64,000 bases of DNA from Escherichia phage vB_EcoM-Ro121c4YLVW (NC_052654.1); one strand, 5' to 3'. Positions 3,724-37,651 are shown, numbered from the stretch's first letter. The notes: generated from the sequence alone by a model not told the origin. A program made the numbers and translations.

Positions 3724-4353
3724 TTAATCTATTTGCTTGAGAAGCGTACACATGCGTCCTGTTTCATCCCCAGTAGATTCCATGTACAGGGAACCTAAAC
3801 CACCAATACCATGAGGCGGTTTGGTAGCATAATAAGAACTAAAACCAAAAGCTGATCCTGCTTTTGCTCCAAGACGGTAGCTACTAATAATAGGGAAAAC
3901 ACTTAGCAACTGCTCTAAAGCTTGATCAGATTGAAGACACAGGTTGTAGAAAAACACATCAAAGGTTTTATTCAAACCTACGTAAGTATTAAGCGTTTCA
4001 CGCTCTGTTCCTGTGAAACGGGCGAAGATATCAATTATGTCACCACGAGTCCCCGATGAGGCTACGCGGTAAGCCCTGATTTTTAATATTGTTCTATACT
4101 CTTCATCATCAGAGCCATTACGTTCGATCCCCATTTCTTCCCCTAGAATATCTAAGTATTTGCCTGTGGCTGTAGAGATCAAGCGGTGTTTAGCAAGATA
4201 GATCATTGCCTGATCTATCTTTTGCTTTTCACTGGATACGATGTAGAGGAGCTTGACAATGTTAGGAGAAGATTTAAAATCTTCAATCAGAAGGTTTTTA
4301 ACATCTTCATTGATACTGGCCCAAGTTGTTACATGGTCAACACTCACTGCCAT
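3724..4353 (-). CDS. putative baseplate/tail protein
   Basis: 209 aa ORF immediately downstream of baseplate J-like gene; gpI-like by position. Confidence 0.4.
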   Translation of the reverse strand: MAVSVDHVTTWASINEDVKNLLIEDFKSSPNIVKLLYIVSSEKQKIDQAMIYLAKHRLISTATGKYLDILGEEMGIERNGSDDEEYRTILKIRAYRVASSGTRGDIIDIFARFTGTERETLNTYVGLNKTFDVFFYNLCLQSDQALEQLLSVFPIISSYRLGAKAGSAFGFSSYYATKPPHGIGGLGSLYMESTGDETGRMCTLLKQID

Positions 4354-4355
4354 TT

Positions 4356-5843
4356 TTACACTCCATACTCGTAAGAAATGTTATCAAGGTCAAAAGAAGG
4401 GACAACATTATAAGCAGGAACTATATTATTCTCTGTATATTTACTGTCATCCTCAGTATTAAGTTTAACATAAACACGAAGAGAAGTCAAGCGTCCAAAA
4501 GCAAGTGCTGCATAAATAACACCTTTGATTTGATCGTTCGTTACTGAAGAACCTAATTCAAAGTAAGCTTGCAGGTTTTGTAAAGCTTCTACAATGTTTT
4601 GTTTTTCTGTTCCACTTAAAGTTGTTCCGTTGACAGTTTGATAAACAAGTTTTACGGAATACATAGCAGAAGCACCAGGAGAGAAGCGAATAATTTCTTG
4701 TCCTCCATCTTCTGTTGTAACTGTTATGTTAGTTGTTCCGTGTGTCAAAGTGTTGATTGGTTTGGTTTTATAGATAACATTTGCAATTTCTTCTGCACTG
4801 CCACCATAAACTATAGTCTGGAAAGTCATAGCTGGAGCGTGTTCTTGATCATGTAACGTAGGGTTATCATAAATCTTCACCTTAGTGACACCATCTGTAA
4901 GTAACAGAGCTTTCACAATAGCTGCTCGTGTCCCTGCGTTAGCTTCGTCAACGTTGTCATTGAAACGAGAGCGGAATTCTGCATCTGTCTCAACATCTCG
5001 ACCAGGAGAAAATGAATAGAAGTTACCACTGTCAAGATAACCTGTAAAGGTAGAAGATATCCCTGTAATAGACTCCACACCAACAGGATTGTATCCTTTC
5101 TCTGCTGCAACTACCGGAATCTCACTCCATTTGGTTCCAACCGGAACACTAGCATAAAATTTAATAGGAGTTACCAGCCCCACTGGAGTATCACTGGTTA
5201 AAGAAGTAAAACCAATTGATAAGTTACCTGAATCAGAAAATACAAGACTACGATCAGCTTCTGTTAAATTTGCCTTGATAAAAGTTTCAAGATCGGTTAT
5301 AAATGTAGAAGAACCAGGTGCAAGTGTTTTACTGTTTAGTCCTCCATCGACCGCACTTTGTGCATAAAAAGTAATATTCGGAACACCTGTAGCAGTTGCA
5401 TTAGCACGAGAGATTTGATAAGCTGCAATCTTAGCATTCAACATAGTTGGTGTGCTAACATAGTAGTTCATATCACTATCAGAGTTGAAGTAAATATCCG
5501 TGCCTAGCTCATAAGTCCAAGCTGCTTTGTTATTACTCTTAACATATGCATAACCTGTACTTGCTGCTGCACCTGCTCGATAGAAACCGCGTTTAGAAAA
5601 GATTTCATCAAGATAAATACCTTCTGCACCATCCAGTGTTTGAGTATTATAAACACCTTGCATACCTTCCCACAATGTGTAATCTGTGTATGCAATTATT
5701 CTAAACAGTTGTCCGATCACAGTATCTTCCGAAGTGGCTGCATCTGCACCAAATGTGTTTTTTACTGCTGTCATGTAGTTGTTTAAAACATCGTCAAAAG
5801 TCGGGATTACAAATCCCGCATCTGTCAAACCATATTCGTCCAT
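4356..5843 (-). CDS. baseplate J-like protein
   Basis: 495 aa; N-terminal region resembles baseplate J family as recalled; unverified. Confidence 0.45.
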   Translation of the reverse strand: MDEYGLTDAGFVIPTFDDVLNNYMTAVKNTFGADAATSEDTVIGQLFRIIAYTDYTLWEGMQGVYNTQTLDGAEGIYLDEIFSKRGFYRAGAAASTGYAYVKSNNKAAWTYELGTDIYFNSDSDMNYYVSTPTMLNAKIAAYQISRANATATGVPNITFYAQSAVDGGLNSKTLAPGSSTFITDLETFIKANLTEADRSLVFSDSGNLSIGFTSLTSDTPVGLVTPIKFYASVPVGTKWSEIPVVAAEKGYNPVGVESITGISSTFTGYLDSGNFYSFSPGRDVETDAEFRSRFNDNVDEANAGTRAAIVKALLLTDGVTKVKIYDNPTLHDQEHAPAMTFQTIVYGGSAEEIANVIYKTKPINTLTHGTTNITVTTEDGGQEIIRFSPGASAMYSVKLVYQTVNGTTLSGTEKQNIVEALQNLQAYFELGSSVTNDQIKGVIYAALAFGRLTSLRVYVKLNTEDDSKYTENNIVPAYNVVPSFDLDNISYEYGV

Positions 5844-33252: not shown

Positions 33253-33549
33253 TTAGATTACGATCTTTTTAGGAACGTCATCTGTATTCTGCACGGCAGG
33301 AGTTTCTTCTTCCATAGCTTCATAATGTTCTTCTAACCATTCTTCTACTTGCTCTTTAATAGCTTTAGCTGCTTGGAAGCGGAGAGGTTTTGCTGCATCC
33401 TTATCATTAACAAGTTCAACAATATATCGCATAGCTTCTAAATAATGCTCTGCAAATAATTCTTTTACACTTGCTTGCGCCGCATCCATTGCGTAGATCT
33501 GTTGCATTTCGGCTGTTGGTCTTCCACGACCACGTTTTAGTTTAGGCAT
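33253..33549 (-). CDS. hypothetical protein (basic N-terminus KRGRGRPT; terminase small subunit candidate)
   Basis: 98 aa ORF with SD GGAGG; first protein gene after tRNA cluster. Confidence 0.5.
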   Translation of the reverse strand: MPKLKRGRGRPTAEMQQIYAMDAAQASVKELFAEHYLEAMRYIVELVNDKDAAKPLRFQAAKAIKEQVEEWLEEHYEAMEEETPAVQNTDDVPKKIVI

Positions 33550-33570
33550 AATAAAATCCTCCTAAACTTT

Positions 33571-33599
33571 ATCTTAACATATAAAAAATAATAAGTCAA
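33571..33599 (-). promoter_or_regulatory. sigma70-like promoter (minus strand)
   Basis: minus-sense TTGACT, 17 nt, TAAGAT upstream of gene 33253..33549. Confidence 0.4.
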
Positions 33600-33617
33600 G
33601 TTTTATTCAATAGATAG

Positions 33618-33641
33618 CAAAAAGCCTCCAATAAGGAGGCT
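33618..33641 (-). terminator. intrinsic terminator closing the tRNA cluster
   Basis: minus-sense AGCCTCC-TTATT-GGAGGCT followed by TTTTTG. Confidence 0.55.
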
Positions 33642-33756
33642 AGTAAATACTGTTAAGTTGAAATGCTTTATTATAATTGTGCGTTAATGAGTCGCACCCC
33701 TCCATCTTAGAAGGAACCAGGCAAGGTCTTCAAAGATACCGCTGGCAAGCGATATT

Positions 33757-33835
33757 TGGAGGCGGGAATCGGATTTGAACCGATGATCTCCAGCATATGA
33801 AACTGGCGAGGACGACCAGACTCCTCTATCCCGCT
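33757..33835 (-). tRNA. tRNA-Met (anticodon CAT)
   Basis: hand-folded cloverleaf; loop TTCATAT; T-arm ATCGG-TTCAAAT-CCGAT; CCA encoded; ends approximate. Confidence 0.7.
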
Positions 33836-33841
33836 ATTATG

Positions 33842-33913
33842 TATCCCGTGCTGGATTCGAACCAGCATCACAATAAGCTGTGGAACTCTTATCCTGTAAG
33901 TCTAACGGGAAAC
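33842..33913 (-). pseudogene. degenerate tRNA-like element
   Basis: canonical T-arm GCTGG-TTCGAAT-CCAGC and pairing acceptor strands but too short; no canonical anticodon arm; no CCA. Confidence 0.3.
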
Positions 33914-33987
33914 TGGTTGTTTCGACAAGAATCGAACTTGTGTCTCACGATTATCAGTCGTGGGTTCTACCATTGAACTACGAAACA
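33914..33987 (-). tRNA. tRNA-Ile (anticodon GAT)
   Basis: acceptor TGTTTCG/CGAAACA; stem CACGA/TCGTG; loop CTGATAA; CCA encoded. Confidence 0.8.
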
Positions 33988-33993
33988 TTTAAT

Positions 33994-34070
33994 TGGTCGG
34001 GACGGAGTGATTCGAACACTCGACCTCTCGCTCCCAAAGCGAGCGCACTACCAAGCTGTGCTACGTCCCG
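33994..34070 (-). tRNA. tRNA-Pro (anticodon TGG)
   Basis: acceptor CGGGACG/CGTCCCG; stem CTCGC/GCGAG; loop TTTGGGA; CCA encoded. Confidence 0.85.
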
Positions 34071-34163
34071 TGATAACATTCTAAAGGTACACCGCAAAAG
34101 AAAGTGTTCGGCGGCTCCTCGTTTTTAACTTCACACTTAAGGTAGTGACTCACCTTTGTTATA

Positions 34164-34239
34164 TGGCTGGTCTGTCTGGATTTGAACCAAACCTACGACA
34201 GTCAAAGTGTCGTGTGCTACCGGACTACACTACAAACCA
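34164..34239 (-). tRNA. tRNA-Gln (anticodon TTG)
   Basis: U1-A72 acceptor; stem CGACA/TGTCG; loop CTTTGAC; CCA encoded. Confidence 0.8.
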
Positions 34240-34337
34240 ATAAATCATTTAATGAAGGGCAACCAGAAGAAGTGTGAGAGAAGGAGAAAACCATGAGTAA
34301 AAGAGAAAGTTTTCTGGCAACCCTTTATTAAATAATT

Positions 34338-34411
34338 TGGAGCGTTCTACGAGGATCGAACTCGTGCCGCCGACTTGGAAGGACGGAATGCTACCGCTAC
34401 ACCAAGAACGC
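34338..34411 (-). tRNA. tRNA-Gly (anticodon TCC)
   Basis: acceptor GCGTTCT/AGAACGC; loop CTTCCAA; T-arm ACGAG-TTCGATC-CTCGT; U73; one stem mismatch. Confidence 0.65.
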
Positions 34412-34422
34412 CATATATATTT

Positions 34423-34452
34423 ACTATACTACATTTTACTATTTGTTGTCAA
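34423..34452 (-). promoter_or_regulatory. sigma70-like promoter inside tRNA cluster
   Basis: minus-sense TTGACA, 18 nt, TATAGT just upstream of tRNA-Gly 5' end. Confidence 0.5.
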
Positions 34453-34725
34453 GACTTTTATTGATTGGGACAGTGACGAGTATCCCGTTGGGTGACTAGC
34501 CCTACGTTCGGTAAGCTAACTTAAAATAATACAAAACCAAAGTCAAATATTATTCTTCGTTGCTGTCGATGGGAGAGCCGCTTCTCATTTTGCCCCATCC
34601 AACCCTACTCCGGTCAAGTTTCGGGTGACTCTTTTTGTGATCAACACAATACTAAGAACACTGTCTTTCGAGCAGACCTTGTGCACAGGATACGACGATC
34701 AATCACAGTGCTCTTAATGTTGTGT

Positions 34726-34800
34726 TGGTGCTCCCACACTGAATCGAACAGAGATCCACGGATTACAAAACCGTTGTAATAGCCATTATACTATAGGAGC
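34726..34800 (-). tRNA. tRNA-Thr (anticodon TGT)
   Basis: acceptor GCTCCTA/TGGGAGC; loop TTTGTAA; CCA encoded. Confidence 0.7.
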
Positions 34801-34806
34801 AATGCT

Positions 34807-34884
34807 GGGACTCGGCAGGATTCGATACCTGCAATTCCAGAAGCCTATTGGCGACTGGGGGGTTTACCTTAACTCTACAAGTCC
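34807..34884 (-). pseudogene. degenerate tRNA-like element
   Basis: pairing acceptor strands and T-arm-like GCAGG-TATCGAAT-CCTGC (8 nt loop) but no anticodon arm; no CCA. Confidence 0.3.
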
Positions 34885-34891
34885 ATAATTC

Positions 34892-34977
34892 TGGCGATGA
34901 GTATAGGATTCGAACCTATATTGTTCTTTCGAACACGGATTAACAGTCCGCCGCTTAAACCATTCAGCCAACTCATC
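34892..34977 (-). tRNA. tRNA with Asn anticodon arm (GTT) and long type-II variable arm
   Basis: 86 nt; acceptor GATGAGT/ACTCATC; arm GCGGA-CTGTTAA-TCCGT; extra arm GTTC-GAAA-GAAC; G73; CCA encoded. Confidence 0.6.
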
Positions 34978-34983
34978 TTAATT

Positions 34984-35071
34984 TGGTGGTGAGTGATGGA
35001 GTCGAACCACCCGAATCGCAATGATAACAGATTTACAGTCTGCCCCGCTACCCCTACGGAATTAACTCACC
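34984..35071 (-). tRNA. tRNA-Tyr (anticodon GTA)
   Basis: 88 nt type II; acceptor GGTGAGT/ACTCACC; loop CTGTAAA; A73; CCA encoded. Confidence 0.8.
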
Positions 35072-35201
35072 TAAATACTAATATTTAAATTCTTTTTAAA
35101 ATAGCCAGTGTTCACACCACTAACTATGAGGTATCGGTAAAGTGGTTACCGCCACTTGCCGAAGATTTACTCTGCTAAAGTAAGCTACATTAAAAAGAAC
35201 T

Positions 35202-35287
35202 TGGCGGTAGATGTAGGACTCGAACCTACACGCCGTTTCCGACTACAGTTTAGCAAACTGTCGTGGCTACCATTTCACCAATCTACC
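35202..35287 (-). tRNA. tRNA-Ser (anticodon GCT)
   Basis: 86 nt type II; acceptor GGTAGAT/ATCTACC; loop TTGCTAA; CCA encoded. Confidence 0.85.
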
Positions 35288-35292
35288 TAATC

Positions 35293-35383
35293 TGGCGGAA
35301 GGAGGGAGAGTCGAACTCCCAAGGCTCTTTCAAGCTCGGCGGTTTTCAAGACCGTTTTCGTCGCCACATCGATTTGCCCTTCC
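35293..35383 (-). tRNA. tRNA-Ser (anticodon TGA)
   Basis: 91 nt type II; loop CTTGAAA; T-arm GGGAG-TTCGACT-CTCCC; CCA encoded. Confidence 0.85.
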
Positions 35384-35391
35384 ATACTTAT

Positions 35392-35421
35392 AATCTAACA
35401 TAAAATAATGTTTGTTGTCAA
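35392..35421 (-). promoter_or_regulatory. sigma70-like promoter inside tRNA cluster
   Basis: minus-sense ATTGACAA then TTAGATT about 17 nt later, just upstream of tRNA-Ser(TGA). Confidence 0.45.
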
Positions 35422-35627
35422 TAGTTTTTTAAAACATTTTACCATGAATGGTGACTCCACCAACCCCCGTTCTCCACGAACGGTGCTCTTCGAGCATTTA
35501 TGTCTTCTAATATAACCGTGGCCTTTGTTTATAATGTCTGACATACTTGCCTCATTCTCTGCCACCATGATCAGTAGTGGGTTCAAATCACTTGAGCTAA
35601 TTCATGTTAAAATGTTCTGGTGTCTTT

Positions 35628-35702
35628 ACAAGGAATCGAACCTTGACTAAGAGTTTAGAAGACTCCTGTGCTATCCATTACACCATAAAGACTTTGGTGG
35701 CC
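35628..35702 (-). tRNA. tRNA-Arg (anticodon TCT)
   Basis: acceptor GTCTTTA/TAAAGAC; loop CTTCTAA; CCA encoded. Confidence 0.8.
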
Positions 35703-35704
35703 CT

Positions 35705-35779
35705 GGCTGGTTTCGATCCAGCTACCTATCGGTTATGAGCCGACAGCTCTCCCATTGAGCTACAGGGCCATAAATGTGG
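35705..35779 (-). tRNA. tRNA with CAT anticodon, tRNA-Ile2 (lysidine) -like
   Basis: acceptor GGCCCTG/CAGGGCC; loop CTCATAA; resembles E. coli tRNA-Ile2 as recalled; CCA encoded. Confidence 0.75.
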
Positions 35780-35978
35780 TAACAGAGACGCTGACGATTG
35801 TAGAGAACCGCTACATTCTCTAAGACCAAGCCCAACTTTCAGCGTAAAAGTTCTTGAGCCGAGACTATTCCTTTTCCTCTTTGGTAGCTAACCTCTGAAG
35901 AAGTAGTCTCTAACACTACCGCAGTGCAAGCCCCTCTTAACAAAAGTCAACGACCCTGTTACCACACTTGATGAACGT

Positions 35979-36008
35979 ATCCTAACATATGAAGGATACG
36001 TTTGTCAA
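35979..36008 (-). promoter_or_regulatory. sigma70-like promoter at head of tRNA cluster
   Basis: minus-sense ATTGACAA, 18 nt, TAGGAT; paralogous to promoter at 35392-35421; about 190 nt leader before first tRNA. Confidence 0.45.
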
Positions 36009-37551: not shown

Positions 37552-37651
37552 TGAGAATCCAGTCCTGACAACAATTGTTCTGATTTTTGCCATGTGTGTG
37601 GTTCACGATGTTCTGGTAAGTTATTTTGACAACAAAGGAGGTAAGAAATGA
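37535..37651 (+). CDS. small membrane protein
   Basis: internal ATG of track ORF 37454..37651 preceded by GGAGG; hydrophobic 38 aa. Confidence 0.4.
   Translation: MIALISENPVLTTIVLIFAMCVVHDVLVSYFDNKGGKK

Follow-up and report, generated by a model that had tools for sequence, protein, structure and literature searches.

A minus-strand tRNA operon of an Escherichia Phapecoctavirus with a long-armed tRNA-Asn and two tRNA-like RNAs

Introduction

The tRNA gene clusters of phages T4 and T5 are the closest described counterparts of the locus considered here, a dense minus-strand array of tRNA genes at positions 33,757 to 35,779 of a 64,000-nucleotide (nt) stretch from Escherichia phage vB_EcoM-Ro121c4YLVW (NC_052654.1; the whole stretch is referred to below as the window). 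The cluster of T4 and of the T4-type phage RB14 includes Gln-UUG, Gly-UCC, Pro-UGG, Ser-UGA, Thr-UGU, Ile-CAU and Arg-UCU genes, and in RB14 also Tyr and then Asn, which is nearly the set found in the window. The T4 genes are tightly packed, without the long structured spacers and internal promoters of the present locus, and the T4 cluster also makes two small stable RNAs. In T5, by comparison, promoters, stable RNAs and tRNA-like RNAs (rna1, rna2, rna3 and RNA I/III/IV/X) are annotated among the tRNA genes, an arrangement like the present one.

Phage tRNAs have also been described as a means of escape from host defences that cut tRNA. AriB of the PARIS system cleaves E. coli's tRNAs for Lys (UUU), Thr (UGU) and Asn (GUU) between positions 40 and 41, with tRNA-Lys(UUU) as the main and tRNA-Asn as a secondary target; it reportedly recognises features distant from the cut, and the T5 tRNA-Lys, tRNA-Thr and tRNA-Asn jointly neutralise PARIS (PMC12409363). 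Retron-Eco7 and Septu are reported to target tRNA-Tyr. The published escape tRNAs (T5 Lys, Thr and Asn against PARIS, phage Tyr against Retron-Eco7 and Septu) have altered bases in the anticodon stem-loop, at the point of cleavage or close to it. Of these isoacceptors, Thr-UGU, Asn-GUU and Tyr-GUA lie side by side in the cluster described here.

The cluster is an already public and annotated phage tRNA operon, familiar in kind, and it is ordinary except for its long-armed tRNA-Asn. Bases 33500-36000 of the window match Escherichia phage ESCO13 (KX552041.2; Stephanstirmvirinae, Phapecoctavirus) at 100% identity, and 65 phage records align with 80% or more of the region, most of them at 95-100% identity. 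Phapecoctavirus clusters (phAPEC8, ESCO13, ASO2A and some 65 other records) share the locus, the gene order and the tRNA set. The ESCO13 record annotates ten tRNAs here and leaves out Tyr and Ser-UGA, and in the Phapecoctavirus records examined the tRNA-like RNAs, the structured leader and the class-II character of the tRNA-Asn are all without annotation. Here we describe these features, and weigh what the cluster and the unusual arm may be for.

Results

Twelve tRNA genes lie in the cluster, all on the minus strand and all ending in an encoded CCA. ARAGORN with default settings called ten of them between 33757 and 35769 (Met-CAT twice, Ile-GAT, Pro-TGG, Gln-TTG, Gly-TCC, Thr-TGT, Asn-GTT, Ser-GCT and Arg-TCT), and the Rfam tRNA model RF00005 matched the same ten and Tyr, giving 11 matches of 39-72 bits against a gathering score of 29. 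The Tyr-GTA match (34987-35071) scored 39 bits; Ser-TGA appeared in a permissive Rfam search only as a sub-threshold match to the tRNA-Sec model (35297-35383, 35.7 bits against 47), and both were called by ARAGORN once its thresholds were lowered by 5% (-ps95). These two genes have irregular D regions, fall below the ARAGORN default and are the least certain members of the twelve. In phage ASO2A, 97.6% identical across the region, the tRNAscan-SE annotation holds exactly the same 12 tRNAs. The initial annotation of the window had folded twelve minus-strand tRNAs by eye, and ARAGORN, Rfam and the ASO2A annotation return the same strand and set, with Ser(UGA) marginal; every anticodon that it listed agrees with the tool results and with public annotation, and the encoded CCA that it had claimed for most of the genes is found in 12 of 12.

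The tRNA-Asn(GUU) at 34892-34977 (minus strand; ARAGORN, Rfam 62.1 bits) is the unusual member. It folds into a cloverleaf of 86 nt with a 15-nt variable region, GUUCGAAAGAACAAU, which reads GUUC-GAAA-GAAC-AAU, that is, a class-II-type arm of 4 base pairs (bp) followed by 3 unpaired nt, where a canonical class-I tRNA has a variable loop of 4-5 nt and E. coli asnT has AUGUC. To our knowledge, textbooks restrict a long variable arm in bacteria to tRNA-Leu, tRNA-Ser, tRNA-Tyr and tRNA-Sec. What had been listed with some reserve as an 'Asn-like type-II tRNA' is thus neither a mis-assignment nor a one-off, and belongs to a widespread viral class of tRNA-Asn.

The identity elements of this molecule point to asparagine. 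In E. coli the determinants of asparaginyl-tRNA synthetase (AsnRS) are the anticodon GUU and G73; seryl-tRNA synthetase (SerRS) reads the long arm and acceptor-stem elements including G2-C71 and ignores the anticodon, and G73 is an antideterminant for the leucyl and tyrosyl enzymes, LeuRS and TyrRS (review PMC9976931). The tRNA at 34892-34977 has the anticodon G34-U35-U36 (loop CUGUUAA) and G73 (end ...CAUC-G-CCA), and its positions 26-43 are those of E. coli asnT at 18 of 18. Across the viral class, among the matches listed, G73 is present in 144 of 162 and the 1-72 pair is U-A in 87 and G-C in 60. We compared the variable arm with those of collected viral tRNAs of other isotypes. The long-armed Asn tRNAs (n=92) have a stem of 3-4 bp with 3-4 unpaired nt on its 3' side, and G2-C71 in 43 of 92. 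Viral tRNA-Ser (n=81) mostly has a stem of 5-7 bp with typically one unpaired nt 3' and G2-C71 in every case (81/81), whereas 34892-34977 has A2-U71, a 4-bp arm and 3 unpaired nt 3'. Viral tRNA-Leu (n=70; stem of 2-4 bp, mostly 2 unpaired nt 3') and viral tRNA-Tyr (n=51; stem of 3-4 bp, mostly 3 unpaired nt 3') have A73 without exception (70/70 and 51/51). Bacterial class II Leu, Ser and Tyr tRNAs carry a stem-loop arm of 11-19 nt, and in geometry 34892-34977 resembles viral Tyr and Leu; it differs from these class II tRNAs in its GUU anticodon, in having G73 rather than the A73 of viral Leu and Tyr and in lacking the G2-C71 that is invariant in viral Ser. Judged from its sequence, it is most likely a genuine asparagine acceptor that would decode AAC and AAU via the host AsnRS, because the anticodon arm is that of asnT, G73 is kept, the arm geometry is unlike that of tRNA-Ser and the extra arm covaries.

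The class is widespread in viruses and almost never found in cellular genomes. Forms of 83-86 nt occur in T5-like phages (Bas26, Bas27 and Bas33), in Justusliebigvirus, in Karamvirus and in others, and a sensitive BLAST search matched 756 phage records, some perhaps ordinary tRNA-Asn picked up through the shared arms. A first census pattern, which was made up of the anticodon arm of tRNA-Asn, a hairpin with a GAAA cap and the T arm and was the only one run on both collections, matched 85 IMG/VR contigs, in 84 of which ARAGORN calls a tRNA-Asn(GTT) of 82-89 nt; two looser patterns gave at least 120 viral matches each. Pooled, the long-armed tRNA-Asn(GUU) amounts to at least 163 distinct sequences from at least 219 viral loci. 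The first pattern matched just six contigs among 185,579 cellular species genomes, with a tRNA-Asn called by ARAGORN in three, and all three of these adjoin phage-type genes (RNA ligase and phosphohydrolase; DNA polymerase exonuclease subunit and HNH endonuclease; DNA primase). No copy was found by sensitive BLAST in 5,426 complete E. coli genomes, in chromosomes or prophages. A search of the literature on phage tRNAs, covering the full text of the main papers, with older T5-like phage papers outside it, turned up no phage tRNA-Asn described as having a long variable arm. On one of the cellular-database contigs, binned as 'uncultured archaeon' (L096), genes for a phage-type RNA ligase and a metal-dependent phosphohydrolase (1744-2787, 3881-4432) lie beside the tRNA-Asn (4626-4710), a pairing reminiscent of tRNA-repair gene sets.

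The arm is a real covarying helix as judged by alignment. In 30 sequences with a 15-nt arm, changes on both sides were seen at all four pairs, and each of the three inner pairs is kept in 29-30 of the 30; most loops belong to the stable tetraloops (GAAA, GUAA, GCAA, UUCG), GAAA being required by two of the three patterns. Hairpin variable arms, often with a GNRA loop, were also found in other tRNAs of the same viral loci, namely in 8 of 44 Thr-UGU, 7 of 44 Cys and 5 of 42 Trp tRNAs (example loci with hairpin-armed other tRNAs are IMG/VR L015 4406-4492, L033 4387-4473 and L133 1324-1407). Single cases were seen in Glu, Lys, Pro, Ile and Phe tRNAs of these loci.

Class-I forms of tRNA-Asn occur in other phages: that of RB14 is an ordinary tRNA of 75 nt, and that of T5 proper an ordinary tRNA of 78 nt, the long-armed form being found in the T5 relatives named above. 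The T arm of 34892-34977 equals that of the RB14 class-I tRNA-Asn at 17 of 17 positions, and both genes directly follow homologous tRNA-Tyr genes (85% identical), which fits the insertion of a hairpin into an ordinary tRNA-Asn. Over the whole sequence identity is 66% to RB14 tRNA-Asn, 65% to the neighbouring Ser(GCU), 63% to Tyr and 60% to asnT, which favours no single origin; a comparison of the acceptor, D and T regions with 1,145 viral tRNAs gave nearest isotypes scattered over Ser, Gln, Lys, Ile, Leu and others, and says nothing on this point.

The other eleven tRNAs, all on the minus strand, are as follows. At the head stands a CAU tRNA of Ile2 type (35695-35769; ARAGORN, Rfam 64.5 bits, tRNAscan-SE Ile-CAT in ASO2A), followed by tRNA-Arg(UCU) (35618-35692; ARAGORN, Rfam 66.3 bits), the marginal class II tRNA-Ser(UGA) with its aberrant D region (35293-35383; ARAGORN -ps95, tRNAscan-SE in ASO2A), the class II tRNA-Ser(GCU) (35202-35287; ARAGORN, Rfam 56 bits) and the class II tRNA-Tyr(GUA) with A73 (34984-35071; Rfam 39 bits, ARAGORN -ps95, ASO2A), whose 85% identity is to the RB14 tRNA-Tyr. 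Beyond tRNA-Asn come tRNA-Thr(UGU) (34726-34800; ARAGORN, Rfam 55.6 bits), tRNA-Gly(UCC) (34338-34411; ARAGORN, Rfam 56.1 bits), tRNA-Gln(UUG) (34164-34239; ARAGORN, Rfam 54.9 bits), tRNA-Pro(UGG) (33994-34070; ARAGORN, Rfam 67.1 bits), tRNA-Ile(GAU) (33914-33987; ARAGORN, Rfam 72.2 bits) and a 79-nt, initiator-like CAU tRNA (33757-33835; ARAGORN, Rfam 50 bits with the 1-72 mismatch flagged).

The two CAU tRNAs differ in kind. Ile2-type acceptor stems carry the determinants C4-G69 and C5-G68, and these are present at 35695-35769, where the acceptor stem GGCCCUG/CAGGGCC and A73 are identical to those of the RB14 tRNA-Ile(CAU); this gene is most likely a tRNA-Ile2 which, with lysidine modification, would read AUA. 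The tRNA at 33757-33835 has an A1xC72 mismatch, A11-U24 and the discriminator U73. The missing Watson-Crick pair at 1-72 is an initiator trait, seen also in its homologues as C1xC72, U1xC72 or U1xU72, and A11-U24 is another. A classical initiator tRNA has three G-C pairs in a row at the base of its anticodon stem, whereas the stem CCAGU/GCUGG has only G30-C40 of the initiator type. The gene is 94% identical to a gene annotated as tRNA-fMet in the Justusliebigvirus JohannJBalmer and 68% to the T5 'initiator tRNA fMet', an fMet-type tRNA of the same family; most likely it encodes an initiator-like tRNA-Met of the family that T5 annotates as fMet. The homologues in T5, KaAlpha and JohannJBalmer show the same odd mixture of initiator and non-initiator traits.

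Two further elements of the cluster are tRNA-shaped and, to judge from comparative folding, are conserved tRNA-like RNAs rather than decaying genes. One (34807-34884, minus strand; z = -2.8) lies directly 3' of tRNA-Asn, a position at which homologues occur in T5-like phages, in Justusliebigvirus (JohannJBalmer) and in Phapecoctavirus, and the T5 homologue is annotated as "rna3, putative tRNA-like RNA". It has no CCA, whereas T5 rna3 ends in ACCA, and it folds with an acceptor stem, a central hairpin where a tRNA would have its anticodon arm, and a T arm whose loop is 8 nt long; its 5' motif GUAGAGUUAAGGUAAAC is invariant. Homology, position and fold all place it with T5 rna3. In an alignment of 10 distinct sequences of this type from three phage groups, 93.5% of the cells are paired, against 29-42% with slid partners, compensatory changes on both sides occur at 11 of 17 base pairs, and the 17-nt 5' motif GUAGAGUUAAG(G)UAAAC is invariant or nearly so. 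The other (33842-33911, minus strand; z = -3.2), which has neither a tRNA call nor a CCA, is built of an acceptor stem, a D arm CUUA-CAGGA-UAAG, a canonical T arm and, at the centre, a hairpin with a loop of 4-6 nt, too short for decoding. Its homologues lie in the Vequintavirinae A7_1 and LTH01 and in phiEB49 (Drexlerviridae), where it is annotated as tRNA-Val(AAC); five aligned sequences, compared by eye, show acceptor and central stems that vary yet remain complementary.

Three minus-strand sites resemble sigma70 promoters, matching 10-11 of 12 consensus positions at 18-nt spacing, two of the three with a TG extension. The head site (35979-36008; 10/12) has TTGACA and TAGGAT, its -10 preceded by TG and its -35 bearing ATTGACAA. 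Of the internal sites, the one before Ser(UGA) (35392-35421) has ATTGACAACAAA and TG then TAGATT, its -10 ending 9 nt before the tRNA 5' end, and the one before tRNA-Gly (34423-34452) has CTTGACAACAAA and TATAGT, ends 12 nt before the 5' end and, at 11/12, is the best match in the region. The initial annotation had placed sigma70-like promoters with a common motif at the head and inside the cluster. The three sites lie where it placed them; the motif ATTGACAA stands at the head and Ser(UGA) promoters, and the tRNA-Gly promoter reads CTTGACAA. The head and Ser(UGA) promoters have TTGACAA and the -10 context TATGTTAG in common, and the two internal sites share the exact 11-mer TTGACAACAAA. The Ser(UGA) promoter is conserved before the same tRNA in JohannJBalmer, including an A/T-rich upstream stretch and the TATGTTAG context. 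Because a generic promoter scan shows no enrichment over shuffled sequence (5 sites against 5.2 expected), support for the promoters rests on the shared extended motif, the position before tRNA 5' ends and the conservation of one of them in another genus, which together make three sigma70-like promoters plausible. A third copy of TTGACAACAAA, at 37626-37636 on the plus strand, lies directly before AAGGAGG and an ATG and overlaps a translation start region; it was not counted as a promoter. The array closes with an intrinsic terminator (33613-33641, minus strand), AGCCTCC-TTATT-GGAGGCT, a 7-bp stem (33641-33623; 5 G-C pairs) with a 5-nt loop followed by the T tract TTTTTGCTATC. This is the closing terminator of the initial annotation, and the annotation of ASO2A has a rho-independent terminator at this site.

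A structured leader of about 200 nt (35770-35972, minus strand; -76.8 kcal/mol, z = -5.6) separates the head promoter from the first tRNA; its multi-branched fold is closed by a helix of about 23 bp. Of 69 related phages, 60 have a leader with 99% identity or more, and against an 81%-identical variant nine of 73 predicted pairs are changed on both sides and still paired. The leader is more conserved than the surrounding cluster: phAPEC8 is 100% identical in the leader and 95.4% over the 2.5-kb region. Most of the minus-strand spacers likewise fold much more stably than shuffled controls. Long-range helices close those at 35422-35617 (z = -4.2; without a known Rfam family) and 35072-35201 (z = -3.2), the latter sharing 83% identity over 125 nt with the JohannJBalmer spacer that follows tRNA-Ser(GCU); in the long spacer at 34453-34725 (z = -2.45) the first 80 nt or so form a hairpin of about 20 bp. 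The tRNA-Gly/tRNA-Gln spacer (34240-34337) is formed by a long inverted repeat of about 24 bp that encloses a pyrimidine-rich loop (z = -5.16; a fold this stable was reached by none of 200 shuffles) and looks like a double-strand processing site. A permissive Rfam search of the spacers gave weak, chance-level matches only, and a search for protein genes in them found only short open reading frames, mostly with GTG or TTG starts, with support for none. The folded leader and spacers resemble the stable RNAs annotated in the T5 tRNA region.

One flank of the cluster holds small hypothetical genes towards the terminase gene and the other a divergent gene block. Klebsiella phage ZCKP1 (MH252123) matches the whole cluster at 97.7%, its copy measuring 3,214 bp against 2,501, and the extra segment is annotated with a helix-turn-helix-type antitoxin-like gene, which suggests a mobile insertion within the tRNA array. 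Three oddly host-labelled records (MG065650, OP562383, OR584014) were compared over 33500-36000. Campylobacter phage B15 is 99.8% identical over the cluster, Acinetobacter phage ABPW7 is 99.0% identical in the leader and 98.7% in the element at 33842-33911, and Pseudomonas phage PsgM04F has a leader variant 80.4% identical; the host labels of these records look doubtful.

Discussion

We put at roughly 85% the probability that the locus is a tRNA operon of 12 CCA-encoding tRNAs, two conserved tRNA-like RNAs and strongly folded spacers, with codon-supply and spare-tRNA roles, in which the long-armed tRNA is an asparagine acceptor. According to this model the operon would have sigma70-type promoters, one at its head and two internal, from which transcription of the minus strand would run to the intrinsic terminator, and host enzymes would presumably process the transcripts into mature tRNAs. 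Most of these would read A/U-ending codons (AUA, AGA, ACA, GGA, CAA, CCA, UCA) that the phage uses more than E. coli, and the Tyr, Thr-UGU and Asn tRNAs could serve as spares for host tRNAs destroyed by anti-phage nucleases.

Some points weigh against this interpretation. The K-12 codon sample consists of 10 genes only, and Ser(UGA) and Tyr, given their sub-default ARAGORN scores and irregular D regions, could be impaired. Class IIb synthetases approach the tRNA from the side of the variable loop, and the extra arm could hinder AsnRS. It should also be noted that the T5 tRNA-Asn used in the PARIS rescue experiment is of class I; those data were not transferred to the long-armed tRNA, and they say nothing direct about this form.

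The window has 39% G+C, and the anticodon set accords with phage codon usage. Per thousand codons, the phage exceeds the sample of 10 K-12 genes for ATA (12.8 against 7.0), AGA (7.4 against 2.6), ACA (29.5 against 17.2) and CAA (24.3 against 19.9), and GGA and CCA are likewise commoner in the phage than in this sample. The codon excess, with the near-identity to the T4 tRNA set, fits the classical explanation of codon supply. Of the alternatives, the one that survives best, which we regard as possible though somewhat improbable, is that the main use of the cluster is to make good host tRNAs lost to defence nucleases or host shut-off, rather than to adjust codon supply. The genes for Tyr, Asn and Thr(UGU) stand together, joined in JohannJBalmer by Lys(UUU), neither Asn nor Tyr codons are rare in E. 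coli, and Tyr, Asn, Thr and Lys are published targets of PARIS and of Retron-Eco7 and Septu. However, seven of the twelve tRNAs read A-ending codons commoner in the phage than in the host sample, and tRNA-Lys(UUU), the main PARIS target, is missing from the cluster. Both the codon-supply and the replacement role are plausible, and one does not exclude the other.

As to the extra arm, we propose, tentatively and in the knowledge that the odds are against it, that it is a tRNA design peculiar to viruses of bacteria, used in Asn and more rarely in Thr, Cys, Trp, Glu or other tRNAs, essentially absent from cells and apparently not described before, in which the arm would protect the tRNA from immune nucleases or mark it as viral while charging by AsnRS is kept. 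Narrower, and doubtful in our view, is the explanation that the arm is an adaptation blocking tRNA nucleases such as AriB beside the 3' strand of the anticodon stem, with AsnRS recognition intact. The class is essentially confined to viruses, its helix covaries and mostly bears a stable tetraloop, host tRNA-Asn is a documented target of AriB, which is reported to read distant features, and one cellular-database match adjoins an RNA ligase and a phosphohydrolase. The published escape tRNAs differ from 34892-34977, which departs from the host in its variable region and keeps the host sequence U36-A-A-U-C-C41 at the AriB cut site, so that protection, if there is any, would have to lie in another part of the molecule, in its shape. 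Against a nuclease-blocking arm, the tRNA-Asn of T5 itself is of class I, with altered bases in its stem, and Bas34 encodes its own tRNA-Asn yet needed that of T5, although cleavage of the Bas34 tRNA is possible according to the authors (PMC12409363). Hairpin arms also occur in viral Thr, Cys, Trp, Glu and other tRNAs, so that a general cause of the arm, such as stability, is equally possible. As a separate observation, the tRNA-Thr(UGU) at 34726-34800 has a U31xU39 mismatch and C41; E. coli tRNA-Thr(UGU) has A41, and the change of A41 to C in tRNA-Lys strongly reduces AriB cleavage (PMC12409363).

The two extra elements had been noted in the initial annotation as degenerate. Both are real tRNA-shaped sequences, as it had said, but the word undersells them, with homologues in other phage families and, in the rna3-like element, compensated pairs. 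That they are decaying tRNA pseudogenes without a function of their own seems unlikely to us. Both lack a 7-nt anticodon loop and an encoded CCA, the rna3-like element is missing after the same tRNA-Asn in some T5-like phages (TrudiGerster), and neither is annotated in 76 related records containing 33842-33911, all of which would suit decay. Nevertheless, the element at 34807-34884 is kept at one position in three distant phage groups with its motif invariant, the stems of the other are still complementary across Vequintavirinae and Drexlerviridae, and T5 annotates several stable or tRNA-like RNAs in its tRNA region (rna3 itself only as 'putative').

Finally, it is very improbable that the long-armed GUU tRNA is a Ser (or Tyr or Leu) tRNA with a mutated anticodon that misinserts at Asn codons: it has a class-II arm and G73 as tRNA-Ser does, the neighbouring Ser(GCU) is also 86 nt long with a 15-nt variable region and a GAAA loop, and GCU to GUU is a single base change that SerRS would ignore, but viral tRNA-Ser differs in its G2-C71 pair, longer stems and single unpaired nt from the Tyr/Leu-like geometry seen here, G73 counts against charging by LeuRS or TyrRS, most class members (among the matches listed) keep U1-A72 and G73, the signature of bacterial tRNA-Asn, and this gene is the only tRNA-Asn of the phage called by ARAGORN.

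Our work thus singles out the virus-restricted class of long-armed tRNA-Asn as the item in this otherwise familiar operon that is worth follow-up; the folded spacers and the two tRNA-like RNAs add to the phage RNAs that are found again in several families and have yet to be studied. A virus-restricted class that breaks the textbook rule would offer tRNA biology a natural test of the tolerance of AsnRS, EF-Tu and the ribosome for added structure. If the arm does protect these molecules, phages would have a second route of escape from tRNA nucleases, by shape rather than by point mutations, and the long-armed tRNA-Asn would be a concrete candidate for research on phage defence.

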